IMG/VR virus record: IMGVR_UViG_2778261247_000004 | From: a virus | Taxonomy: Duplodnaviria; Heunggongvirae; Uroviricota; Caudoviricetes | DNA length: 26,352 nucleotides | Strand: one strand, 5' to 3' | In this document: positions 1-26,352 of the stretch, in pieces | Layout: each line of letters starts with the position of its first letter | How positions within the stretch are numbered: position 1 is the stretch's first letter | The notes under the pieces: generated by a model | The model's input: only the letters and a program-made list of their open reading frames with translations | Told to the model about the DNA's origin: nothing | Databases searched by the model: none | Program-made: the position numbers and the translations under genes

Positions 1-582
1 GATCAGTGGCGCACGCCGGACAACATTTTCTGGGGAATTAACACCCTGTTTGGCCCGTTTGTTCTGGATCTGTTCACCGACGGTGGTAACGCCAAATGTG
101 CCGCGTATTACACGGCGGAAGACAATGCGCTGGCGCATGACTGGTCAGAACGTCTTGCGGAGCTTAAAGGTGCTGCCTTTGGTAATCCCCCATACAGCCG
201 CGCCAGTCAGCATGAGGGGCAATACATCACCGGCATGCGTTACATCATGAAGCATGCCAGTGCCATGCGTGATAAAGGCGGGCGCTATGTTTTCCTGATC
301 AAAGCTGCCACCAGCGAAGTGTGGTGGCCGGAAGATGCAGATCATATTGCTTTTATTCGCGGGCGTATTGGTTTTGAACTGCCTGTCTGGTTTATCCCGA
401 AAGACGAGAAGCAGGTGCCGACAGGCGCTTTCTTCGCTGGTGCTATTGCTGTTTTTGACAAGACCTGGAAGGGACCGGCAATCAGCTACATCGGGCGCGA
501 TGAACTTGAGGCATGTGGTGAGGCGTTTCTGGCGCAGGTTCGCCAGCAGGCGGAAAAACTGCTCAGGGAGATGGCGGCATGA
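1..582 (+). CDS. Phage DNA N6-adenine methyltransferase (Dam family), 5'-partial at window edge
   Basis: Frame 1 is open from base 1. Translation DQWRTPDNIF...FVLDLFTDGGNAKCAAYYTAEDNALAHDW...FGNPPYS matches the phage Dam signature, including the NPPY catalytic motif. Stop TGA at 580-582. Confidence 0.85.
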   Translation, partial: DQWRTPDNIFWGINTLFGPFVLDLFTDGGNAKCAAYYTAEDNALAHDWSERLAELKGAAFGNPPYSRASQHEGQYITGMRYIMKHASAMRDKGGRYVFLIKAATSEVWWPEDADHIAFIRGRIGFELPVWFIPKDEKQVPTGAFFAGAIAVFDKTWKGPAISYIGRDELEACGEAFLAQVRQQAEKLLREMAA

Positions 583-905
583 CGACGTTAACTCAATGCC
601 AGCAGCAGGTGCTGGATATGCTGATTTCTTATCAGAAAGAACGTGGCTTCCCGCCAACCAATCAGGAGGTGGCAACCATGCTGGGATACCGTTCAGTGAA
701 TGCAGCGGTGGAGCATCTTCGAGCACTGGAGAAAAAAGGCGTCATCACGATAAAGCGTGGCGTGGCCCGGGGTATCACTCTTCATACCGCGGTGAAGGAC
801 GACGACAGCGAGGCGGTCGGGATTATCCGCTCACTGCTTGCCGGTAAGGAAAACGCCAGGCTGCGTGCAGCCCACTGGTTACATGAGAGGGGCCTGAAAG
901 TATGA
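579..905 (+). CDS. LexA-like winged-helix DNA-binding protein (LexA N-terminal domain only, no S24 peptidase domain)
   Basis: 108 aa. N-terminal about 70 aa (LTQCQQQVLDMLISYQKERGFPPTNQEVATMLGYRSVNAAVEHLRALEKKGVITIKRGVARGITL) aligns by eye to the E. coli LexA DNA-binding domain. Start overlaps the Dam stop (ATGA); stop overlaps the rusA start. Confidence 0.75.
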   Translation: MTTLTQCQQQVLDMLISYQKERGFPPTNQEVATMLGYRSVNAAVEHLRALEKKGVITIKRGVARGITLHTAVKDDDSEAVGIIRSLLAGKENARLRAAHWLHERGLKV

Positions 906-1291
906 AGCTGATTCTGCCGTTTCCGCCCAGCGTGAACACGTACTGGCGACACCCCAACAAAGGGGCGTTTGCTGGTAAGAGCCTGATAAGCGCGGCGGGG
1001 CGCAAATTCCAGAGCGCGGCGTGTGCAGCAATAGTTGAGCAGTTACGTCGTCTGCCAAAACCAACGTCGGCACCTGCTTCAGTGGAGATCGTGTTGTTTC
1101 CTCCGGATAACCGGATCCGCGATCTGGACAACTATAACAAGGCGCTGTTTGACGCCCTGACCCACGCGGGTGTGTGGGAAGACGACAGTCAGGTGAAAAG
1201 AATGCTGGTGGAGTGGGGACCGGTTATCCCGGAAGGGAAGGTCGAGATCACTATCAGTAAGTACGAGAAAACGGCGGGTGCAGCTGCCTGA
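902..1291 (+). CDS. rusA: Crossover junction endodeoxyribonuclease RusA (Holliday junction resolvase)
   Basis: 129 aa with RusA family hallmarks (PFPPSVNTYW ... DLDNYNKALFDALT ... VWEDDSQV). Typical nin-region position. Confidence 0.9.
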   Translation: MKLILPFPPSVNTYWRHPNKGAFAGKSLISAAGRKFQSAACAAIVEQLRRLPKPTSAPASVEIVLFPPDNRIRDLDNYNKALFDALTHAGVWEDDSQVKRMLVEWGPVIPEGKVEITISKYEKTAGAAA

Positions 1292-1310
1292 TTAAGAGGA
1301 GAAACGAAGT

Positions 1311-2108
1311 ATGAATAATCTGATGGTTATTGATGGTATTGAAGTTCGTCGTGATGCTTATGGGCGTTACAGCCTGAACGATCTGCACAGGGCTGCCGGT
1401 TCTCTGGATAAGCATAAGCCTGCATTCTGGCTCCGCAATGAGCAAACTGAACGTTTAATAAGCGAGTTGCAGATTTGCAACTCGGTCAATATAGAGCCAG
1501 TTAACGTTATTCGTGGCGGAAATAACCAGGGGACGTATGTCTGCAAAGAACTGGTGTATGCCTATGCAATGTGGATAAGCCCGTCATTCCATCTGAAGGT
1601 GATCCGTACTTTCGATATGGTAACCAGCACACCGGAAAAATTATCCGGGCAGGCTGCTGACAAGATGCAGGCTGGCGTGATCCTGCTGGACTTTATGCGC
1701 CGGGAATTAAACCTGTCTAACTCATCAGTGCTTGGAGCCTGTCAGAAGCTTCAGGAGGCTGTTGGCTTACCGAATCTGGCACCGCGCTATGCCATTGATG
1801 CTCCTGCTGACGCGCCTGATGGCTCAAGTCGCCCGACACTGTCGCTGAGTGCACTGCTGAAACAGTATGGTATCCGCCTTACGGCTAATCAGGCATATCA
1901 CCAGATGGCGAAGCTGGGGATCGTCGAACAGCGCGAACGATACAGCCGTACAGCGATTAACAACATCAAAAAATTCTGGTCGCTGACGGCGAAAGGCTGC
2001 ATGTTCGGCAAGAACATCACCAGTCCTGCAAATCCGCGCGAGACGCAGCCGCATTTCTTCGAATCCCGATTCCCTGAGCTGTTAAAGCTGCTCGATACCG
2101 TTCATTGA
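1311..2108 (+). CDS. KilA-N domain protein (putative antirepressor-like)
   Basis: N-terminus (IDGIEVRRDAYGRYSLNDLHRAAG...KPAFWLRNEQT) resembles the KilA-N DNA-binding domain. Good RBS AAGAGGAG 9 nt upstream of ATG 1311. Confidence 0.65.
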   Translation: MNNLMVIDGIEVRRDAYGRYSLNDLHRAAGSLDKHKPAFWLRNEQTERLISELQICNSVNIEPVNVIRGGNNQGTYVCKELVYAYAMWISPSFHLKVIRTFDMVTSTPEKLSGQAADKMQAGVILLDFMRRELNLSNSSVLGACQKLQEAVGLPNLAPRYAIDAPADAPDGSSRPTLSLSALLKQYGIRLTANQAYHQMAKLGIVEQRERYSRTAINNIKKFWSLTAKGCMFGKNITSPANPRETQPHFFESRFPELLKLLDTVH

Positions 2109-2109
2109 G

Positions 2110-3105
2110 GTGACCGTGAGAGCACTACTGACCCCTGAAATTGCCCCGCGTATGGGGATCGTATTGTTCAGGCCCGGTTCAGAGCTGATGCCCCTGTTTA
2201 TGCAGGGGCGTGTCCTGCTGGAGCCTGAGCCGGAACGTTATTCATCTTTTGCCAGTGGTGCCGTTCCGGCGGCATCACAACCGCTGGCGGATGATCCTGC
2301 CATTCGGGCCGTGTTCCGCAATGAGGCAGTTATTCGTCGTGCGGGGGGTGTGGAATGTCTTGAAAGCTGGTTACTTCGTGAAAAGGGCTGTCAGTGGCCT
2401 CATTCCGGATGGCACAGCGAGAACATGACCACAATGCGACACGCGCCGGGCGCAATCCGTCTGTGCTGGCACTGCGATAACCTGCTTCGCGATCAGTTCA
2501 CGGAACGGCTGGAATCAATGGCAACGGATAACTGTGCCCGCTGGGTGTTGTCTGTTGTGCGTCGGGATCTCGGTTTTGATGATAGTCACGTTGTGACAAT
2601 GCCGGAACTGTGCTGGTGGCTGATTCGTAATGACCTGGCGGATGCCTTACCGGAAAGTGCAGCCCGTAAGGCACTGAGATTACCGAAGCCTGTTGTGCCG
2701 TCTGTCACCCGGGAAAGTGACCTTGTGCCTTCGGTTCCTGCCACCAGCATCATCCAGGATAAGGCGAAAAAGGTGCTGGCGCTGAAAGTGGATCCGGAGT
2801 CGCCGGAGTCTTTTATGTTACGCCCAAAACGTCGCCGCTGGGTTAATGAAAAGTACACGCGCTGGGTTAAGACACAGTCGTGTGCATGTTGTGGAAAGCC
2901 CGCTGATGATCCCCACCACCTGATAGGCCACGGACAGGGTGGAATGGGTACAAAAGCGCATGACCTTTTTGTGTTGCCTTTGTGCAGAAAGCATCACGAC
3001 GAGCTGCATGCGGATACCGTGGCATTTGAAGAGATGTATGGCTCCCAGCTGGAGCTGATATTTCGTTTTATCGATCGTGCGCTGGCAATTGGCGTACTGG
3101 TGTAA
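2110..3105 (+). CDS. DUF968 family phage protein (YdfU-like) with C-terminal Cys/His cluster
   Basis: 331 aa if the GTG at 2110 is used (alternative ATG at 2152). C-terminus CACCGKPADDPHHLIGHGQGGMGTKAHDLFVLPLCRKHHDELH is a zinc-finger/HNH-like motif. Sits immediately upstream of Q, as I recall for ydfU next to quuQ in the Qin prophage. Confidence 0.6.
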   Translation: MTVRALLTPEIAPRMGIVLFRPGSELMPLFMQGRVLLEPEPERYSSFASGAVPAASQPLADDPAIRAVFRNEAVIRRAGGVECLESWLLREKGCQWPHSGWHSENMTTMRHAPGAIRLCWHCDNLLRDQFTERLESMATDNCARWVLSVVRRDLGFDDSHVVTMPELCWWLIRNDLADALPESAARKALRLPKPVVPSVTRESDLVPSVPATSIIQDKAKKVLALKVDPESPESFMLRPKRRRWVNEKYTRWVKTQSCACCGKPADDPHHLIGHGQGGMGTKAHDLFVLPLCRKHHDELHADTVAFEEMYGSQLELIFRFIDRALAIGVLV

Positions 3106-3118
3106 GTGGAGAACGAGC

Positions 3119-3871
3119 ATGAACCTTGAAGCCTTACCGAAATATTACTCCCCAAAATCTCCAAAATTGAGCGATGACGCATCGGCGACAGGCTCGGGTG
3201 GTTTAACAATTACGGATGTAATGGCTGCGCAGGGGATGGTGCAGTCGAAAGCACCGCTTGGGTTTGCCTTATTCCTGGCAAAAGTTGGTGTTCAGGATCC
3301 TCAATTTGCGATTGAAGGTCTGCTCAATTACGCGATGGCACTGGATAACCCGACATTGAACAAATTGAGTGAAGAAACCCGGTTACAGATCATCCCTTAC
3401 CTTGTGAATTTTGCCTTTGCTGATTATTCCAGGTCTGCGGCAAGTAAGGCTCGCTGTGAGCATTGTACTGGTACTGGATTTCATAATGTATTGCGCGAAG
3501 TGGTGAAACATTCCAGAAGCGGGGAATCCGTTATCAAAGAAGAGTGGGTGAAGGAACTGTGTCAGCATTGTCATGGCAAGGGAGAAGTCAGCACGGCGTG
3601 CAGAGGGTGTAAGGGTAAAGGTATTGTCCTGGATGAAAAAAGAACCCGGCTTCATGGCACGCCTGTTTATAAGACTTGTGGGCGTTGCAATGGAAACCGG
3701 TTTAGCCGTTTACCGACTACACTGGCACGACGTCATGTCCAGAAGCTGGTTCCAGACCTGACTGATTATCAGTGGTACAAAGGATATGCAGACGTAATTG
3801 ATAAACTAGTAACAAAGTGCTGGCAGGAAGAAGCATATGCTGAAACACAATTGAGAAAGGTGACGAGATAA
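3119..3871 (+). CDS. Q: Late-gene antitermination protein Q (QuuQ-like, zinc-finger type)
   Basis: 250 aa from ATG 3119 (RBS GGAG about 7 nt upstream; the track start at 3077 overlaps the previous gene). Repeated CxxCxGxG motifs (CEHCTGTG, CQHCHGKG, CRGCKGKG, CGRCNGN). Position directly upstream of the promoter/terminator region and lysis cassette. Confidence 0.7.
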   Translation: MNLEALPKYYSPKSPKLSDDASATGSGGLTITDVMAAQGMVQSKAPLGFALFLAKVGVQDPQFAIEGLLNYAMALDNPTLNKLSEETRLQIIPYLVNFAFADYSRSAASKARCEHCTGTGFHNVLREVVKHSRSGESVIKEEWVKELCQHCHGKGEVSTACRGCKGKGIVLDEKRTRLHGTPVYKTCGRCNGNRFSRLPTTLARRHVQKLVPDLTDYQWYKGYADVIDKLVTKCWQEEAYAETQLRKVTR

Positions 3872-3889
3872 GTGATTTTCGCCGAAGAT

Positions 3890-3978
3890 AGTGACATGAA
3901 GCTTGCATTTTTCAAAAAATATGGATAAGATTTTCTCAACGATGGGCTTTGTATGTCTGCCGTTGATAATTTTCACGA
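3890..3978 (+). promoter_or_regulatory. Candidate Q-dependent late promoter (PR'-like) and qut region
   Basis: Intergenic AT-rich stretch between Q and the first terminator, with TTGCAT and TTGATA -35-like hexamers. Exact -10/-35 not resolved by eye. Confidence 0.3.
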
Positions 3979-4004
3979 ACCCGCTGTTGAGCGGGTTTTT
4001 ATTT
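3979..4004 (+). terminator. Rho-independent terminator (tR'-like) downstream of the late promoter
   Basis: ACCCGC-tgttga-GCGGGT hairpin followed by TTTTTATTT. Confidence 0.6.
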
Positions 4005-4056
4005 ACTTGTACTGAAACACATTATATAACCTCATATCAGTTAAAAAGGAGGTTGT

Positions 4057-4392
4057 ATGATTAATGCCGTTGAGTACAGATTACCGTTAGGAAATATCTC
4101 TCCAGAGAATCTTGACGCGTTGTCAGAACTTATCGTTAAGCATTCCGATAAATTTAATAACTATGTACTTAGTTCTATTTCTGATGATGATATTCGATAT
4201 TCTTACGATTACTACAATTTTGAAATCACAGAGATAGATGAATATGGGTTTCACTTTATAGCACCATATAGCTATTATGAAGGATGCGTTGACAATAACT
4301 TCTCAGGAGAGGTTGAAGGTTATGCAGAATACGAAATTATTGATAATGAATTAGTCTTCTCTCTTGAGGAACTACCTTGGGATGTAAAATAA
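4057..4392 (+). CDS. Hypothetical highly acidic, Tyr-rich small protein (cargo gene in the Q-holin slot)
   Basis: 111 aa ORF with strong RBS AAGGAGG 5 nt upstream of the ATG. Visibly AT-rich relative to flanking phage genes. About 24 Asp/Glu against 5 Lys/Arg, counted by eye. No family recognised. Confidence 0.6.
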   Translation: MINAVEYRLPLGNISPENLDALSELIVKHSDKFNNYVLSSISDDDIRYSYDYYNFEITEIDEYGFHFIAPYSYYEGCVDNNFSGEVEGYAEYEIIDNELVFSLEELPWDVK

Positions 4393-4403
4393 ATATCAAT
4401 AAT

Positions 4404-4435
4404 AAAGGCCGTAACGAACGGCCTTTATTATTATA
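4404..4435 (+). terminator. Rho-independent terminator after the acidic cargo ORF
   Basis: AAAGGCCGT-aacga-ACGGCCTTT hairpin (9 bp stem) followed by ATTATTAT; A-run upstream, so possibly bidirectional. Confidence 0.6.
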
Positions 4436-4543
4436 AAATCATCAATGCCTGATGAATTAGAATGTAATTTTCGAATTAATAATAAATCAACATATCATTT
4501 CACGCTCCGATTTTCTGTCGGAGGCGAAACTGCGGCTATTCAT

Positions 4544-4849
4544 ATGCACGAAAAAGAGAATCTTGCCGGAGCGTTCTGGCTTGTTTTGCTGATCATCGCA
4601 GGTTGGGGGGGGCTTGTCCGTTACCTGATTGATGTGAAGCAGAGTAAAGCAACGTGGAGCTGGATAAATGCCCTCGCTCAGATAGTTGTATCAGGATTCA
4701 CCGGTGTTATTGGTGGCCTAATCAGTATCGAAAGTGGATTCAGTATTTACATGATTCTCGCAACTGCGGGGATTAGTGGTGCGATGGGTTCGGTTGCACT
4801 GACGTACTTCTGGGAACGACTGACAGGGGTGAAAAATGCAAAATCTTAA
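4544..4849 (+). CDS. Putative holin (three predicted transmembrane segments)
   Basis: Three hydrophobic segments (FWLVLLIIAGWGGLV; WINALAQIVVSGFTGVIGGLISI; IYMILATAGISGAMGSVALTYFW) and a charged C-terminus. 3' end overlaps the endolysin start. Start uncertain: ATG 4544 preferred; the track start at 4445 adds 33 non-hydrophobic residues and lacks an RBS. Not lambda S-like by eye. Confidence 0.6.
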   Translation: MHEKENLAGAFWLVLLIIAGWGGLVRYLIDVKQSKATWSWINALAQIVVSGFTGVIGGLISIESGFSIYMILATAGISGAMGSVALTYFWERLTGVKNAKS

Positions 4850-5312
4850 TCCTCAGCGTAAAGCTTTCCTCGATATGGTGGCCTGGTCAGAAGGAACGGA
4901 TAATGGGCTACAACCGACACGTAATCATGGTTATGACGTCATTGTGGGCGGAGAAATATTCACTGATTACTCCGATCACCCTCGCAGACTTGTCACGCTA
5001 AACCCAAAACTCAAATCAACGGCTGCCGGGCGCTACCAGCTTCTTTCCCGCTGGTGGGATGCATACCGTAAACAGCTTGGACTGAAAGACTTCTCTCCAA
5101 AAAGCCAGGATGCTGTTGCACTGCAGCAGATTAAAGAGCGTGGTGCTTTACCGATGATTGATCGCGGTGATATTCGTCAGGCTATCGACCGTTGCAGCAA
5201 TATCTGGGCTTCACTGCCGGGAGCTGGTTATGGTCAGTTTGAGCATAAGGCTGACAGCCTGATTGCAAAATTCAAAGAAGCCGGCGGAACGGTCAAAGAG
5301 ATTCAGGTATGA
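4836..5312 (+). CDS. R: Endolysin, lambda R-type lytic transglycosylase
   Basis: 158 aa, near-identical over most of its length to phage lambda R as I recall it ([17 protein letters not shown]...[123 protein letters not shown]). Confidence 0.95.
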
Positions 5313-5746
5313 GCAGAGTAACGGTGATTATATCCGCTCTGGTTATCTGCATCATCGTCTGCTTGTCATGGGCTGTTGATAATTACCGTGATGACGCCAT
5401 CGTCTACAAAGTACAGCGCGATAAAGCCACATCCATCATCGCTGATATGCAGAAGCGTCAACGTAATGTAGCTGAACTCGATGCCAGATATACAAAGGAG
5501 CTTGCTGATGCTAATGCGACTATCGAAAGTCTTCGTGCTGATGTTTCTGCTGGGCATAAGCGCCTGCAAGTCGCCGCCACCTGTACAAAGTCAACGACCG
5601 GAGCCAGCGGCATGGGCGATGGAGAAAGCCCTAGACTTACAGCAGATGCTGAACTCCATTATTACCGTCTCCGAAGTGGAATCGACAAGATAACCTCACA
5701 GGTCAATTACTTGCAGGAGTATATCAGGACGCAATGTCCCAACTAA
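5309..5746 (+). CDS. Rz: Spanin inner-membrane subunit (i-spanin), lambda Rz-like
   Basis: 145 aa. N-terminal TM segment [22 protein letters not shown] plus coiled-coil periplasmic domain, closely resembling lambda Rz. Start overlaps the R stop (ATGA). Confidence 0.9.
5508..5693 (+). CDS. Rz1: Spanin outer-membrane lipoprotein subunit (o-spanin), Rz1-like, embedded in the +1 frame of Rz
   Basis: +1 frame ORF wholly inside Rz. Signal peptide with lipobox ([20 protein letters not shown]) then a Pro-rich mature region ([13 protein letters not shown]). RBS AAAGGAG about 8 nt upstream of ATG 5508. Confidence 0.75.
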
Positions 5747-5843
5747 TCACATTTTGAGGATATTTAACGTCTATGCTTTAATGATTTTATTCATTGTTTT
5801 ATAATCGCGAAGAATAATGATGAACTTGGCAAAGGATATGATT

Positions 5844-6068
5844 ATGCGTATTAAACCTCAAGATTTTAAGTTTGATGTGTTGACTGTTGCTGGTTACGCT
5901 AACCCTAAAGCTAAAACACATTTCGCACCTTCTGCTTCTGGATTTAATTTTAAATGGGAGTGGGAAGGGAAAATTTATGAGCTTCATATCGAGCAAGAAA
6001 AATTACAGTACCCTGATTTTATTCTTGAACGACTTTTTGATGCCGCAATTGAGATGGCTAAAAAATGA
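5844..6068 (+). CDS. Hypothetical small protein (AT-rich island, unknown function)
   Basis: ORF 5817-6068; preferred start ATG 5844 (RBS AAGGA about 8 nt upstream), giving about 74 aa. AT-rich; a TATAAT-like hexamer at about 5800-5805. No family recognised. Confidence 0.45.
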   Translation: MRIKPQDFKFDVLTVAGYANPKAKTHFAPSASGFNFKWEWEGKIYELHIEQEKLQYPDFILERLFDAAIEMAKK

Positions 6069-6174
6069 CAAAAATCACCGGATGGGGTTTTTGTTTATAG
6101 ATATTCACACATAGCCCTTGCATCTAGAACAGAAAATCTTGTCATGGCGCGGGGCTATGTTAGCAAAAATTTAT

Positions 6175-6615
6175 TTAATAGGATATTTTGTTTGCAGATT
6201 TAAGCTCTTTAAGAGTAGCGTCAAGTATATGTAAAAATAGAGAAGTGTCGCCATACTCATAATGTGGCTCGGATTTGTATTCTCTAATATAAATAAATCC
6301 ACCTTTGGATAAAAATAAATCAATCAGCTCGTTGTTATTTTCATCGGTTGGGTCAATGGCAGCAAACTTCAATACAGGAGCTTCATCAATGACTAGCAGT
6401 GTTTCTTTGAAAATAAGTTCTAGTTCATATGTTGAAAGTTTGAGGGTTAACCTATTTTTTTTATCTTTATTGAAAATTATTGTGTCGCCAAGAAAATCGT
6501 ATTCAGAGCTTGAGTCAATAATGTTATTCTTAAGTTTGAGAGATATTGCATCTAAAGCCTTTTTATGCTCTGCGCACTTAACAACTTTATGAACATCTAA
6601 ACTGGGGATACTCAT
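6175..6615 (-). CDS. Hypothetical protein, minus strand (AT-rich island, unknown function; candidate accessory gene)
   Basis: 147 aa from ATG at 6615 with RBS AGGTGG 8 nt upstream on the minus strand (track ORF reaches 6678). Strongly AT-rich. Opposite in orientation to every flanking phage gene. No TM segment and no motif I recognise. Confidence 0.5.
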   Translation of the reverse strand: MSIPSLDVHKVVKCAEHKKALDAISLKLKNNIIDSSSEYDFLGDTIIFNKDKKNRLTLKLSTYELELIFKETLLVIDEAPVLKFAAIDPTDENNNELIDLFLSKGGFIYIREYKSEPHYEYGDTSLFLHILDATLKELKSANKISY

Positions 6616-6717
6616 AATACAACCACCTATGTAAGAACTAAAGAGCATTGAGTCTATGTGATTAATATCAAGACCCAATTAAATTTTTTAAATTATTAGA
6701 GTTAGATCCCACTTTAA

Positions 6718-7068
6718 ATGCCCCCACGAACCCCAAAAGCCTGCCGCGTTCGCGGCTGCCGCCAAACCACCACTGATCCGTCAGGCTATTGTGAAAGCCA
6801 CAAAAGCGAAGGCTGGAAACAATACAAGCCAGGACAATCCCGTCACCAGCGCGGCTACGGTTCGAAGTGGGATGTTATCCGCGCGCGCGTGCTGAAGCGT
6901 GACAAAGGCCTGTGTCAGTTGTGCCTGCATGTCGGTGTGGTGCGTGAGGCGAAAACCGTTGACCACATCATCCCTAAAGCGCATGGCGGCACTGATGCAG
7001 ACTGCAATCTGCAGAGCCTGTGCTGGCCGTGTCATAAGGCGAAGACGGCCCGTGAACGACTGAAGTGA
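6718..7068 (+). CDS. Phage HNH endonuclease (terminase-associated type)
   Basis: 116 aa with CxxxGC...YC..H N-terminal zinc knuckle and HNH core (VDHIIPKAHGGTD...NLQSLCWPCHKAKT). Immediately upstream of the small terminase, as in HK97-like phages. Confidence 0.85.
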   Translation: MPPRTPKACRVRGCRQTTTDPSGYCESHKSEGWKQYKPGQSRHQRGYGSKWDVIRARVLKRDKGLCQLCLHVGVVREAKTVDHIIPKAHGGTDADCNLQSLCWPCHKAKTARERLK

Positions 7069-7092
7069 TAATAATTCTCAACTTTCTGAGGG

Positions 7093-7160
7093 GAGGGGCG
7101 GGTCAAATCCCTGTGACCTGACGTCTTCCGGACTGCCCGCCCCATCGTTTTTTTATACCC
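7093..7160 (+). other. GC-rich inverted repeat / candidate cos (cohesive end) or packaging-recognition region
   Basis: GGGGCGGG ... CCCGCCCC inverted repeat flanking about 34 nt, followed by a T-run. Lies between HNH and TerS, where HK97-like phages carry cos. Could instead be a terminator. Confidence 0.3.
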
Positions 7161-7193
7161 GCGAAAAATGAAATTTAACCAGGAGTGCCGCAT

Positions 7194-7688
7194 ATGGCTG
7201 GAACGGCGGGGCGTTCCGGGCGTCGCCCCAAGCCAACGGCGCGCAAGGCGCTGGCCGGAAACCCCGGCAAGCGAGCCCTGAACAAAGATGAACCTGTTTT
7301 TACGCCCATCAAAGGTGTTGAGCCACCGGAGTGGTTCGCTGAAGAAGATCTCCCTCTCGCCACGATCATGTGGCAACTGACAACCAAAGAACTCTGCGGT
7401 CAGGGCCTGCTGTGCGTGACTGACCTCGCGGTGCTTGAGCGGTGGTGCGTGGCCTATGAGTTCTGGCGACGTGCTGTGAAAAATATTGCCATACAGGGCA
7501 ATACCATCACCGGCGCAATGGGCGGCAGGGTCAAAAATCCGGAGCTGACAGCCAAAAAAGAACAGGAGTCCGAGATGAGCAGCACGGGGGCAATGCTCGG
7601 ACTCGACCCCAGCAGCCGTCAGCGTCTGATTGGCCTGGCGGGGCAGAAGAAAGCCACTAACCCGTTTCTGAAAATCATCGAATCATGA
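7194..7688 (+). CDS. Terminase small subunit (P27 family)
   Basis: RBS AGGAG 8 nt upstream of ATG 7194 (track alternative GTG 7185). Basic N-terminus ([22 protein letters not shown]) typical of P27-family TerS. Directly precedes TerL with a 4-nt overlap. Confidence 0.8.
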
Positions 7689-24044: not shown

Positions 24045-24788
24045 ATGCATCGTATAGACACGAAAACCGCGCAGAAGGATAAGTTCGGCGCGGGTAAGAA
24101 CGGTTTTACCCGTGGTAACCCCCAGACAGGCACGCCTGCCACCGATCTGGATGATGACTACTTTGACATGTTGCAGGAAGAACTCTGCAGCGTGGTGGAG
24201 GCATCCGGTGCCAGTCTGGAGAAGGCGCGGCACGACCAGCTGCTTACCGCGCTTCGTGCGCTGCTGTTAAGCCGCAAGAATCCGTTTAGCGATATCAAAT
24301 CGGACGGCACGGTGAAAACGGCTCTCGAAAACCTTGGTTTGGGAGAAGGCTCTGCATTACCTGTTGGTGTGCCTGTTCCATGGCCTTCAGCCACACCGCC
24401 AACAGGCTGGCTGAAATGCAACGGTGCGGCTTTTTCTGCTGAAGAATACCCGGAACTGGCAAAGGCTTATCCGACAAATAAATTGCCTGATTTACGTGGT
24501 GAGTTTATTCGTGGCTGGGATGATGGGCGCGGCGTTGATTCAAGGCGTGCGGTGCTGTCAACACAAGAGCCAACTGTAGGTACTTTTTATGTGGAGCTAG
24601 CTATCATCTCGGGAACTTTGAGCGGCTCAGGTGCTAAATTTACCGATTCAGTAGGGATTGGATCAACCAGTAGTAACATTACCGTTAGCAACGGTAATGA
24701 CCAGTCCGTGTCGGGTACAGTGGCCGTTAACCCCGTCGATACCCGTCCACGCAACATTGCATTTAACTATATCGTGAGAGCAGCATAA
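24045..24788 (+). CDS. Tail fibre protein (constant N-terminal part plus currently expressed variable C-terminal part)
   Basis: 247 aa. Contains a phage tail-collar signature ([30 protein letters not shown]...[17 protein letters not shown]). The left inversion site lies inside it at 24322-24347. Confidence 0.8.
24322..24347. repeat. Left crossover site for a Hin/Gin/Pin-family serine invertase (hix/gix-like)
   Basis: TCTCGAAAACCTTGGTTTGGGAGAA has the AAACC-NN-GGTTT core of hix/gix/pix sites. Its reverse complement matches the right site over 13 consecutive bases. Confidence 0.6.
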
Positions 24789-25390
24789 TGGATAAAGCAA
24801 TATTAAATAGTGGACTTGTTGCTACAAAGGCAGGGGATATTACCGTTTATAACTATGATGGTGAAACTCGGGAATATATTTCCACTTCAAGTGAATATCT
24901 TGCCGTTGGTGTTGGTATCCCGGCATATTCCTGTCTGGATGCACCAGGTATACATAAGGCGGGTTATGCTATCTGTCGTTCTGTGAATTTAAATTCATGG
25001 GAATATGTGCCAGACCATCGCGGTGAAATCGTCTATAACACCGAAACGGGAGAATCAAAACAAATCACAGCACCGGGTGATTACCCCGAAAATACAACCA
25101 CTATTGCCCCATTAACGCCATACGATAAATGGGATGGTGAGAAATGGGTGACCGATACTGAGGCACAGCATAGCGCCGCAGTAGACGCGGCAGAAGCACA
25201 GCGTCAGTCACTGATTGATGCTGCAATGGCTTCCATCGGTCTGATTCAGCTGAAATTACAGGCCGGACGGAAGCTGATGCAGGCAGAAACAACCCGGCTT
25301 AACGCTGTGCTGGATTACATTGACGCGGTGACGGCAACAAATACCAGCACAGCGCCGGATGTCATCTGGCCTGAACTGCCGGAGGCGTAG
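24788..25390 (+). CDS. Tail fibre assembly protein (Tfa/U-like)
   Basis: 200 aa; TAATG overlap with the fibre gene; C-terminal Tfa signature (...LDYIDAVTATNTSTAPDVIWPELPEA). Confidence 0.8.
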   Translation: MDKAILNSGLVATKAGDITVYNYDGETREYISTSSEYLAVGVGIPAYSCLDAPGIHKAGYAICRSVNLNSWEYVPDHRGEIVYNTETGESKQITAPGDYPENTTTIAPLTPYDKWDGEKWVTDTEAQHSAAVDAAEAQRQSLIDAAMASIGLIQLKLQAGRKLMQAETTRLNAVLDYIDAVTATNTSTAPDVIWPELPEA

Positions 25391-25805
25391 GCCATTCAAT
25401 ATCTGGCGCACAGGAAGTATCGACCAGTTCCAGTGCGTCCAGATAATCCAGCCACGAATTATATTGCGCCAGTTCCTCGCCTTTCAGACGACCAATAGCA
25501 GCTTTGCCAGGCCACTGATGGGTATTGATGTAGGTATTGACTTCTGAAACCAAAGATATTTTTTTCATTTCAGCCGTCAACACCTCATCCTCTTTTGAAG
25601 GGGGTGGGGAATTAATCCATACTGGCCGTCCTGAACTGTCAGCGCCAATTTCTTTCCCTTCTGGATGCAGACCAAGAAATTGCTCATATGTTTCTCTGGT
25701 AATTTCAATAACATCATCAGGAAGCGTTCCCGCATCCTCATATTCTGGAAACAATTCTTGCAGATAAAAACTTTTACTTCCGGGTGAAAAGAATACTGAG
25801 TTCAT
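25362..25805 (-). CDS. Alternative tail fibre assembly protein (Tfa'/U'-like), minus strand
   Basis: 147 aa, convergent with and 3'-overlapping the + strand tfa. C-terminal Tfa signature (WLDYLDALELVDTSCAPDIEWPTPP). Confidence 0.75.
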   Translation of the reverse strand: MNSVFFSPGSKSFYLQELFPEYEDAGTLPDDVIEITRETYEQFLGLHPEGKEIGADSSGRPVWINSPPPSKEDEVLTAEMKKISLVSEVNTYINTHQWPGKAAIGRLKGEELAQYNSWLDYLDALELVDTSCAPDIEWPTPPAVQAR

Positions 25806-25807
25806 TA

Positions 25808-26352
25808 TTACCGTCCAATGATTAACGCTGAGACGCTGGTATCTGAAGGAAAGGCTGCATTCAGTGGTTTGTCGACTTTGAACACAATCGTATTATTCCC
25901 CCTGACAGCGGCAAAAGAACAAACCGCCGTCGCGTATGAACCTGTAATATTACTGGATACACCACCATAAGCTGTTGTTGATACCAGAGGGATAACGCCC
26001 AGCACCTTATTAGGAAATACAAAGGGCAATGTGGCTGTGGCAATATAAGACTTATTAGAACCTGTGATGGCATAAGCATTATCAGTCATTCCATTCATCG
26101 CCACTGGGCCGCTTATACTTACAGTAACCATCTGAATGATTAGCCCGTCAGGTTGACGAATCACAAAATTTCCATTGCTACCAGTAACCGTCCAGAAAGA
26201 CATATCAGGGATTTGGTTTTCCCCGTTGCCCACATTCCGTTTTGCCGCTTCTCCCAAACCAACGTTTATGAAAATGGTAACCGGCTCATTTAAACCGTCT
26301 GGTCTGTTTCCTCCGGCTCTACAAAAATAATGTCCATCATTTTTAATGGACA
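25808..26352 (-). CDS. Alternative tail fibre variable C-terminal segment (Sv'-like), minus strand; frame stays open to the window edge
   Basis: The track ORF starts at TTG 26257, but my translation of the same frame stays open through 26352 (...PDGLNEPVTIFINVGLGEAAKRN...). Shares an N.GLGE junction with the + strand fibre exactly at the inverted repeat. Stop is 2 nt before the tfa' start. Confidence 0.6.
   Translation of the reverse strand, partial: SIKNDGHYFCRAGGNRPDGLNEPVTIFINVGLGEAAKRNVGNGENQIPDMSFWTVTGSNGNFVIRQPDGLIIQMVTVSISGPVAMNGMTDNAYAITGSNKSYIATATLPFVFPNKVLGVIPLVSTTAYGGVSSNITGSYATAVCSFAAVRGNNTIVFKVDKPLNAAFPSDTSVSALIIGR
26246..26271. repeat. Right crossover site (inverted copy) for a serine invertase
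   Basis: TTCTCCCAAACCAACGTTTATGAAAA. The central dinucleotide AA is the reverse complement of the left site's TT, as required for inversion. Confidence 0.6.

Follow-up and report, generated by a model that had tools for sequence, protein, structure and literature searches.

A truncated LexA homologue can serve a phage as a functional DNA-binding regulator, the precedent being gp6 of the Bacillus thuringiensis tectivirus GIL01, an early gene product acting by DNA binding, which binds GaCACAnnTGTGaC and activates the late promoter (PMC6182141). Other proteins of mobile elements, namely the DinI homologues of prophages, plasmid PsiB, gp7 of GIL01 and Hex of phage 434 (the last two described in PMC6182141 and PMC3564112), damp or reshape the SOS response of the host. 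The present work deals with a stretch of 26,352 nucleotides from a tailed virus (Caudoviricetes; IMG/VR record IMGVR_UViG_2778261247_000004), hereafter called the window, and with a gene at its positions 579–905 (+ strand, stop codon included) that starts with ATG and encodes a 108-residue protein, LexN, consisting of a LexA-type DNA-binding domain and a short tail. When compared by architecture, GIL01 gp6 would be the closest characterised analogue of LexN, both being phage-encoded LexA winged-helix domains devoid of the peptidase (PMC6182141). The role favoured here for LexN, with a probability of about 0.38, is that of an uncleavable LexA surrogate that would repress host SOS genes during lytic growth.

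A LexA-type DNA-binding domain with a conserved tail

The N-terminal part of LexN is a LexA DNA-binding domain. Residues 1–65 match the entire PF01726 model (LexA_DNA_bind, positions 1–65 of 65) with 69 bits against a cutoff of 23.7 (E=2.9e-19), a sequence search of the PDB ranks the DNA-binding domain of E. coli LexA first (1lea, E=6.9e-16), and an ungapped alignment with residues 1–69 of E. coli LexA has 35 identical positions out of 69 (51%). An AlphaFold2 model computed from 17 family sequences, with a mean predicted local distance difference test score (pLDDT) of 83, presents three helices and a beta-hairpin wing within residues 6–68, and Foldseek superposes it on the LexA–DNA complex 3jso with a root-mean-square deviation of 1.0 Å over 68 residues; the Foldseek matches other than LexA were generic winged helix-turn-helix (wHTH) regulators, with deviations of 8–12 Å over the full length. 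The domain thus covers residues 1–68 (579–782, + strand), with helix 1 at residues 6–22, helix 2 at 28–35, helix 3 at 40–52 and the wing at 56–68. A preliminary description of the gene had already read its first 70 or so residues as the LexA winged helix, an assignment borne out by the alignment, profile and structure comparisons, which put the homology to LexA far above chance level.

The catalytic half of LexA is absent. Pfam searches gave no Peptidase_S24 match in LexN, which ends 19 residues past Gly89 with the RusA gene starting directly, and self-cleavage is therefore not expected. The LexA equivalog model TIGR00498 is matched only over its positions 1–91 of 203, with 69.3 bits. Because this score stays below the cutoff of 110.95, the S24 domain is missing and the Ala–Gly pair aligned with the LexA cleavage site is not conserved in the family, LexN is a member of PF01726 and of the phage protein family PHROG 362, and lies outside LexA in the TIGR00498 sense. 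The possibility that LexN is a known anti-phage defence protein was also considered and rejected, the PADLOC defence-system models yielding only a weak, wHTH-level match of LexN to a CARF protein (E=3.6e-4) and no match for RusA or DUF968, the products of two genes lying downstream.

As a separate observation, five metagenome proteins (P0131, P0132, P0148, P0154 and P0155) carry two tandem LexA DNA-binding domains per chain with the peptidase domain absent, and the same protein library holds many LexA-domain-only proteins of 69–80 residues, so that LexA derivatives reduced to the DNA-binding domain appear to be widespread.

In LexA, base contacts are reported for residues S39, N41, A42, E44 and E45 (PMC3091678). 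In LexN the corresponding segment, Ser39 plus the recognition helix as defined by the LexA alignment (residues 39–52, S-V-N-A-A-V-E-H-L-R-A-L-E-K; 693–734, + strand), retains four of these five residues (S39, N41, A42 and E45), E44 being replaced by Val, and continues with H46-L47 as in LexA. S39 does not vary within the family, N41 and H46 hardly do, and most relatives at 40–50% identity keep the N-A-A-x-E-H signature. Moreover, the wing residues 53–68 are identical to those of LexA at 10 of 16 positions, and the LexA wing is credited with setting the half-site spacing (PMC8565304). Since both the recognition residues and the wing are LexA-like, a CTGT-type half-site is the most likely target of LexN, with the proviso that its specificity could have shifted.

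Following the wing, an acidic linker modelled with low confidence (residues 69–74, 783–800, + strand; pLDDT below 50 for residues 71–75) leads to a two-helix hairpin (residues 75–103, with helices at 75–88 and 93–103; 801–887, + strand) predicted with a pLDDT of about 88. An exhaustive HMMER search recovered tail-bearing relatives at 40–50% identity (P0124, P0125, P0128, P0129, P0136 and others), which have in common the pattern EAVxxIRxLLAxxxxARxRAxxWLxxxG after the wing. Among 68 distinct genes of the P0128 subfamily, the ratio of nonsynonymous to synonymous substitution rates was 0.21 for the wHTH domain and 0.18–0.21 for the tail. The tail is consequently a conserved element under purifying selection, a feature of these 38 residues that the preliminary description had missed. 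A tail-only profile found no solved structural relative, recovering only summed weak matches to designed PPR repeats and not LexA. An amphipathic two-helix hairpin joined to a DNA-binding domain that normally needs pairing would most simply be a dimerisation or partner-docking module.

The first helix of this hairpin ends near an Ala88–Gly89 dipeptide (840–845, + strand) that MAFFT and Smith–Waterman alignments both place on Ala84–Gly85 of LexA. The preliminary description had stated that neither an Ala–Gly cleavage site nor a peptidase was present; the second part of this statement stands, as seen above, and the first is wrong in that the pair exists. Nevertheless, Ala88–Gly89 is probably a relic or a coincidence and hardly a working cleavage site, because the match to LexA in this stretch is weak, with minimal identity, the dipeptide is replaced in homologues that are 83–86% identical (LLVGEE, LLANEE) as well as in most of the distant ones, the segment is predicted by AlphaFold2 to be helical instead of an extended cleavage loop, and the tail-only profile misses LexA.

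Proposed repression of host SOS genes and the competing explanations

If LexN retains the specificity of LexA, its sites have to be sought outside the phage. A scan for CTGT-N8-ACAG, which the preliminary description had suggested, returned no perfect site in the window or in the rest of the prophage to which the window corresponds (locus L001). Sites with one mismatch numbered 13 in the window (8.3 expected) and 13 in L001 (10.0 expected); they are at chance frequency and unconvincing, having poor spacers or lying within genes. CTGT/ACAG inverted pairs with spacings of 0–20 were likewise found in none of the intergenic regions of the window, including the region of the late promoter PR' (3872–4056), and the short inverted repeats detected in positions 1–7200 included no obvious operator. 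Given that the phage offers no candidate site, a LexA-like specificity, if kept, would be exerted on the SOS boxes of the host.

It is proposed that LexN belongs to the delayed-early genes of a temperate phage resembling SfV and e14. The gene is located in the rightward early operon, 3' of the replication, PerC and Dam genes and 5' of the antiterminator gene Q, a position from which it should be expressed only after loss of the prophage CI repressor by cleavage, or after infection. By that time the LexA pool of the host would be low, if phage growth had begun by SOS induction, and RecA* would be unable to inactivate LexN, which has no S24 peptidase domain. LexN would then bind as a pair to the CTGT half-sites of host SOS boxes, the pairing being ensured by LexA-type wing–wing contacts on DNA, by dimerisation of the C-terminal hairpin, or by both. 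In this way the SOS regulon could be kept, or returned, under repression while the phage replicates. The benefit for the phage is a matter of speculation and might lie in silencing rival prophages that respond to SOS induction, genes for colicins and lysis, toxins, and polymerases that are error-prone or mutagenic.

A comparison of 185 viral loci, which fall into three divergent LexN subfamilies at 40–50% identity, provided an indication of how LexN may be connected with the SOS response. Perfect CTGT-N8-ACAG sites occur 61 times in these loci against 20.6 ± 4.3 expected, a threefold excess that is due to true SOS boxes rich in AT, CTGTTTATTTATACAG and CTGTATATATATACAG being examples. Apparent excesses of CTGT-N15-ACAG and CTGT-N6-ACAG were rejected, both arising from single conserved coding sequences counted repeatedly. 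In the subfamily of P0136, which is 42% identical to the LexN of the window, 29 of 36 loci have a canonical SOS box at a distance of 0.4–1.1 kb on the 5' side of LexN. One such locus (L152, 3507–4408) has, in this order, a terminator, a TTGCAA-17-AATAAT promoter, the SOS box, a gene designated orf82 and LexN, with no terminator-like site between the SOS box and LexN. In another (L161, 3209–4327), a TTGACC promoter overlapped by the SOS box is followed by a gene for a DinI homologue (PF06183, E=8e-22), an open reading frame of 80 residues and LexN, a weak terminator-like hairpin of 5 bp lying 3' of dinI. The conserved open reading frame of about 80 residues that precedes LexN in both loci has no Pfam match, and the promoter that the box overlaps is sigma-70-like in both. 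Since a canonical SOS-box promoter precedes LexN, often accompanied, as in L161, by dinI, the LexN of the P0136 lineage is, as judged from these arrangements, placed under host LexA control and beside a known SOS damper.

A further locus, L185, contains at 2831–3199 a second canonical SOS box (CTGTTTATATATACAG) located 5' of an open reading frame of 109 residues that begins with MGFPSPAKDYAEQ. Its start presumably resembles that of UmuD'; no clear GDSM motif is seen in the frame, and Pfam gave no match.

Several points weigh against SOS repression as the function of LexN. In the aligned tail-bearing relatives, position 44 is occupied by A, V, T, F or L and never by Glu, the only rows of the alignment with E44 being P0153 and P0238, apparently fragments of LexA or fusions with it; the LexN family has also lost the Arg28 of LexA, and its specificity may thus have drifted. 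The isolated N-terminal domain of LexA is a weak DNA binder, and dimerisation through the tail is deduced from a monomer model only, with a predicted template-modelling score (pTM) of 0.56. The SOS box seen upstream of LexN in the P0136 subfamily was found in 0 of 64 and 0 of 81 loci of the two other subfamilies, with none in the window's own, and no experimental study of the enterobacterial LexN family was found in full-text literature searches. The near-constant linkage of LexN to a DUF968 gene points to a different, DNA-processing role, and GIL01 gp6 shows that a truncated LexA can evolve a new site and become an activator (PMC6182141).

The balance of these data bears on the earlier proposal that LexN occupies SOS boxes regardless of DNA damage. 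Retention of S39, N41, A42 and E45, the LexA-like wing and the SOS-box/dinI arrangement of the P0136 lineage are consistent with it, E44 being the only contact residue changed (to Val), and the binding is a prediction. A more specific scenario can be drawn, in which Stx2c and other enterobacterial phages would carry an uncleavable LexA stand-in, dimerised by its hairpin, that re-occupies host SOS boxes after LexA destruction and constitutes, in some lineages together with DinI and behind an SOS box of its own, an SOS off-switch; taken with all its parts, this scenario is possible and at the same time doubtful.

Among the alternatives, the one that survives best, even if it is to be considered somewhat unlikely, is that LexN is a phage-specific transcription factor with an operator of its own, regulating a nin-region, late or moron promoter in the manner of GIL01 gp6. 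The gp6 precedent itself, the replacement of LexA residues E44 and R28 throughout the LexN family and the filing of PHROG 362 under transcription regulation all speak for such a factor. However, apart from the replaced position the recognition helix resembles that of LexA, the late genes of this phage are under control of Q, with a PR'-like promoter and a terminator 3' of Q at 3891–3998, the intergenic search for CTGT/ACAG pairs gave none, and the short inverted repeats revealed no obvious operator. In addition, the genes flanking LexN overlap it, so that no regulatory DNA adjoins the gene. A role at phage operators, which the preliminary description had also contemplated, finds no support: the prophage of L001 possesses an S24-type CI with GTAC-type operators, and the scans described above gave neither a perfect CTGT-N8-ACAG site nor an intergenic CTGT/ACAG pair. 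LexN was considered as the immunity repressor as well and was rejected, since separate S24-type CI, Cro-like and CII-like genes are present and LexN is therefore not the lysogeny repressor.

A less probable explanation, and an unlikely one, is that LexN serves as a DNA-binding accessory of the DUF968 His-Me nuclease, of RusA, or of both, the tail docking the enzyme and the wHTH domain targeting or restraining it on DNA. A DUF968 gene lies 3' of LexN in 173 of the 185 viral loci, most of the exceptions being truncated contigs, with zero or one variable gene in between. The divergence of LexN tracks that of DUF968 (pairwise Spearman coefficient of 0.65, against 0.41 for DUF968 and its own adjacent downstream gene), a correlation confounded by the sampling of three subfamilies. 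A translational overlap with RusA is found in the window, mEp390 and L002, and the conservation and selection of the tail would agree with docking. On the other hand, DUF968 functions independently of LexN, as 186 phage records hold DUF968 and only 61 hold LexN, the intervening genes vary (RusA, KilA-N, Rha/ANT antirepressor-like genes or small open reading frames), and the gene order of the lambdoid nin region is conserved anyway.

Lastly, it is very improbable that LexN is a decoy, either displacing host LexA or pairing with it on DNA without repressing, or slowing the cleavage of LexA, UmuD or CI in trans through occupancy of the active site by its Ala–Gly region: the alignment of Ala88–Gly89 with the LexA cleavage site and the conservation of the wing, which mediates domain–domain contacts on DNA, would suit it, but the dipeptide is lost in close and in most distant homologues and sits in a predicted helix of a tail whose profile does not recover LexA, any occupant of SOS boxes would likely repress because these boxes overlap promoters, and LexA dimerises via the C-terminal domain that LexN lacks, which also makes the dominant-negative partnership envisaged earlier unlikely by the usual route. 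The remaining probability belongs to some other function, and repression of host SOS genes by an uncleavable LexA surrogate stays the favoured reading.

Gene neighbourhood, prophage and distribution

The window begins inside the gene for a phage Dam (N6-adenine methyltransferase), so that just the 3' part of this gene is present (1–582, + strand). The product matches PF05869 (E=1.5e-16) and TIGR01712 (127.6 bits, the cutoff being 97). As read from the sequence, the Dam stop codon (TGA, 580–582) overlaps the LexN start codon (ATG, 579–581) in an ATGA tetranucleotide (579–582, + strand), an AGGGAG Shine–Dalgarno-like motif lying 5' of the LexN start, and a second ATGA (902–905, + strand) joins the LexN stop (TGA, 903–905) to the start (ATG, 902–904) of the gene for a RusA-family Holliday-junction resolvase (902–1291, + strand; PF05866, E=6e-15). 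The coupling of LexN to Dam and RusA by overlaps on both sides had been correctly noted before. Among the E. coli genomes examined, and within the matches listed, the gene directly 5' of LexN is a Dam methyltransferase in some prophages and a PerC/YfdN-family regulator in others, RusA on the 3' side being constant.

Downstream of RusA follow an antirepressor-like KilA-N domain gene (1311–2108, + strand; PF04383, E=2e-26), the DUF968 gene of the His-Me-finger (YdfU) family (2110–3105, + strand; PF06147, E=6e-80) and the antiterminator gene Q (3077–3871, + strand, the RefSeq start corresponding to window position 3119; PF03589, E=3e-54), with which the early, nin-type region comes to its end. 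LexN thus stands within an unbroken run of + strand genes upstream of Q, and a sequence scan found no promoter-like or + strand terminator-like element between LexN and its neighbours. The same scan for promoters, terminators and short inverted repeats over positions 1–7200 returned only the expected PR'/tR' elements and a bidirectional terminator. The DUF968 protein weakly resembles HNHc_6 as well as Ref, a RecA-dependent nuclease (E=0.66). The Q protein is long, with 264 residues by its open reading frame and 250 in RefSeq, and carries a match to the DnaJ-type CXXCXGXG zinc finger (E=9e-9) N-terminal to the Antiterm domain.

The window represents two thirds of a temperate phage, on its right-hand side. 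It carries early genes of the nin type, Q, genes for lysis, HNH and terminase, and then the structural genes, for a head of the HK97 type, a contractile tail and its fibres. Over the LexN gene it matches an E. coli ATCC 11775 prophage (L001) with 100% identity. The immunity region of this prophage, 3.3 kb upstream of LexN, comprises Cro-like and CII-like genes along with a gene for a ymfK-like CI of the S24 type (PF00717, E=1.5e-26). Between this CI gene and the Cro-like one, at L001 11940–11970 and 12700–12775, are inverted repeats containing GTAC, such as TTGTACCGTTAAGGTACAAG, presumably the CI/Cro operators and unrelated to SOS boxes.

Two further features of the window were recorded. On the minus strand, an open reading frame of 167 residues (6175–6678) is situated between the lysis and the HNH/terminase genes; it has no PHROG match, RefSeq annotates a hypothetical protein of 146 residues in this region, and the frame may be a moron. 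Near the right end, a tail-fibre C-terminal segment and its assembly chaperone (24045–25390, + strand) face, on the opposite strand, a second chaperone (25362–25805, minus strand) and an alternative fibre C-terminus (25808–26257, minus strand). This arrangement (24045–26257) has the layout of the invertible host-range cassettes of the Mu/P1 type, whose invertase would fall past the end of the window.

Concerning its distribution, LexN is identical to the RefSeq protein WP_000210172.1, labelled 'LexA family transcriptional regulator', and its residues 1–108 match positions 1–106 of the 106-position profile of PHROG 362 ('transcriptional repressor', about 106 residues, category transcription regulation; E=5.9e-59). 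Copies that are 94–99% identical are carried by SfV (orf42), SfII, SfIV, mEp460, cdtI, 1720a-02, fifteen Stx2c-converting phages and some Stx2a phages, under labels such as 'LexA DNA binding domain protein' (SfII, mEp460), 'LexA-like protein' and 'repressor, lexA family'. A screen of 5426 complete E. coli genomes detected LexN DNA in 2233 (about 41%), in up to four copies, identity ranging from 95 to 100% when these genomes are taken together with SfV, SfII, SfIV, mEp460, cdtI and the Stx2c and Stx2a phages, and the protein-collection clusters that contain LexN have thousands of members. A preprint on 1720a-02, whose LexN copy is 99% identical, traced prophage interference to Cro and leaves the LexN gene unmentioned. 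As a sequence feature LexN is therefore ordinary, already annotated and extremely common, and not a new kind of entity, a catalogue status that the preliminary description had overlooked. The new leads provided here are the hairpin tail, with its conservation and selection, the companionship of DUF968, which is almost constant, and the connection of LexN with an SOS box and dinI in one subfamily.

Wider meaning and comparison with known systems

Prophage induction, the release of Shiga toxin, mutagenesis and antibiotic tolerance are all governed by the SOS response. If LexN does bind SOS boxes, a second layer of SOS control, timed by the phage, would exist in many natural isolates, given its presence in roughly two fifths of complete E. 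coli genomes. K-12 would probably be without this layer, as its e14 and CPS-53 remnants presumably lack the region. Such a layer would hold back toxins, colicins, mutagenic polymerases and those competing prophages that are SOS-inducible, and the induction of Shiga-toxin phages could be modulated by it. If LexN instead serves the DUF968 or RusA nucleases, it would provide the first functional handle on the DUF968 family.

Considering the known systems one by one, SfV orf42, PHROG 362 and WP_000210172.1 belong to the same gene family as LexN, with no sequence difference that would set them apart, and are known from annotations only. E. coli LexA shares with LexN the fold, 51% identity over residues 1–69, the helix-3 contacts except E44 and a similar wing. 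Unlike LexA, LexN has no S24 catalytic and dimerisation domain and ends instead in a helical hairpin. In extent it is close to the LexA autocleavage fragment (residues 1–84) with about 20 residues added. The natural N-terminal fragment of LexA is a weak binder, degraded by ClpXP via its newly exposed C-terminus; the C-terminus of LexN is not at the position of that of the autocleavage fragment.

GIL01 gp6 differs from LexN in being of Gram-positive LexA origin, in ending just past the wing and in binding its own palindrome at the late promoter P3, which it activates (PMC6182141). LexN, in contrast, belongs to the proteobacterial LexA lineage, keeps CTGT-type recognition residues and has an additional conserved two-helix tail. 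The phages differ also in their late control, which is exerted via Q in the phage of LexN, with no CTGT/ACAG inverted pair at its PR' region, whereas the gp6 palindrome overlaps the −35 element of the late promoter.

The lambdoid CI repressors are, like LexN, phage DNA-binding proteins tied to the SOS signal. Unlike LexN, they possess a cleavable S24 domain and are encoded divergently to cro, the LexN gene being placed 3.3 kb downstream in the early operon. DinI, PsiB, gp7 and Hex, for their part, act on RecA* or on the LexA protein, whereas LexN would act on the DNA, as a substitute repressor. If this is true, operator DNA would be the target of a third mode of SOS tampering by mobile elements, besides those directed at RecA* (DinI, PsiB) and at the LexA protein (gp7).

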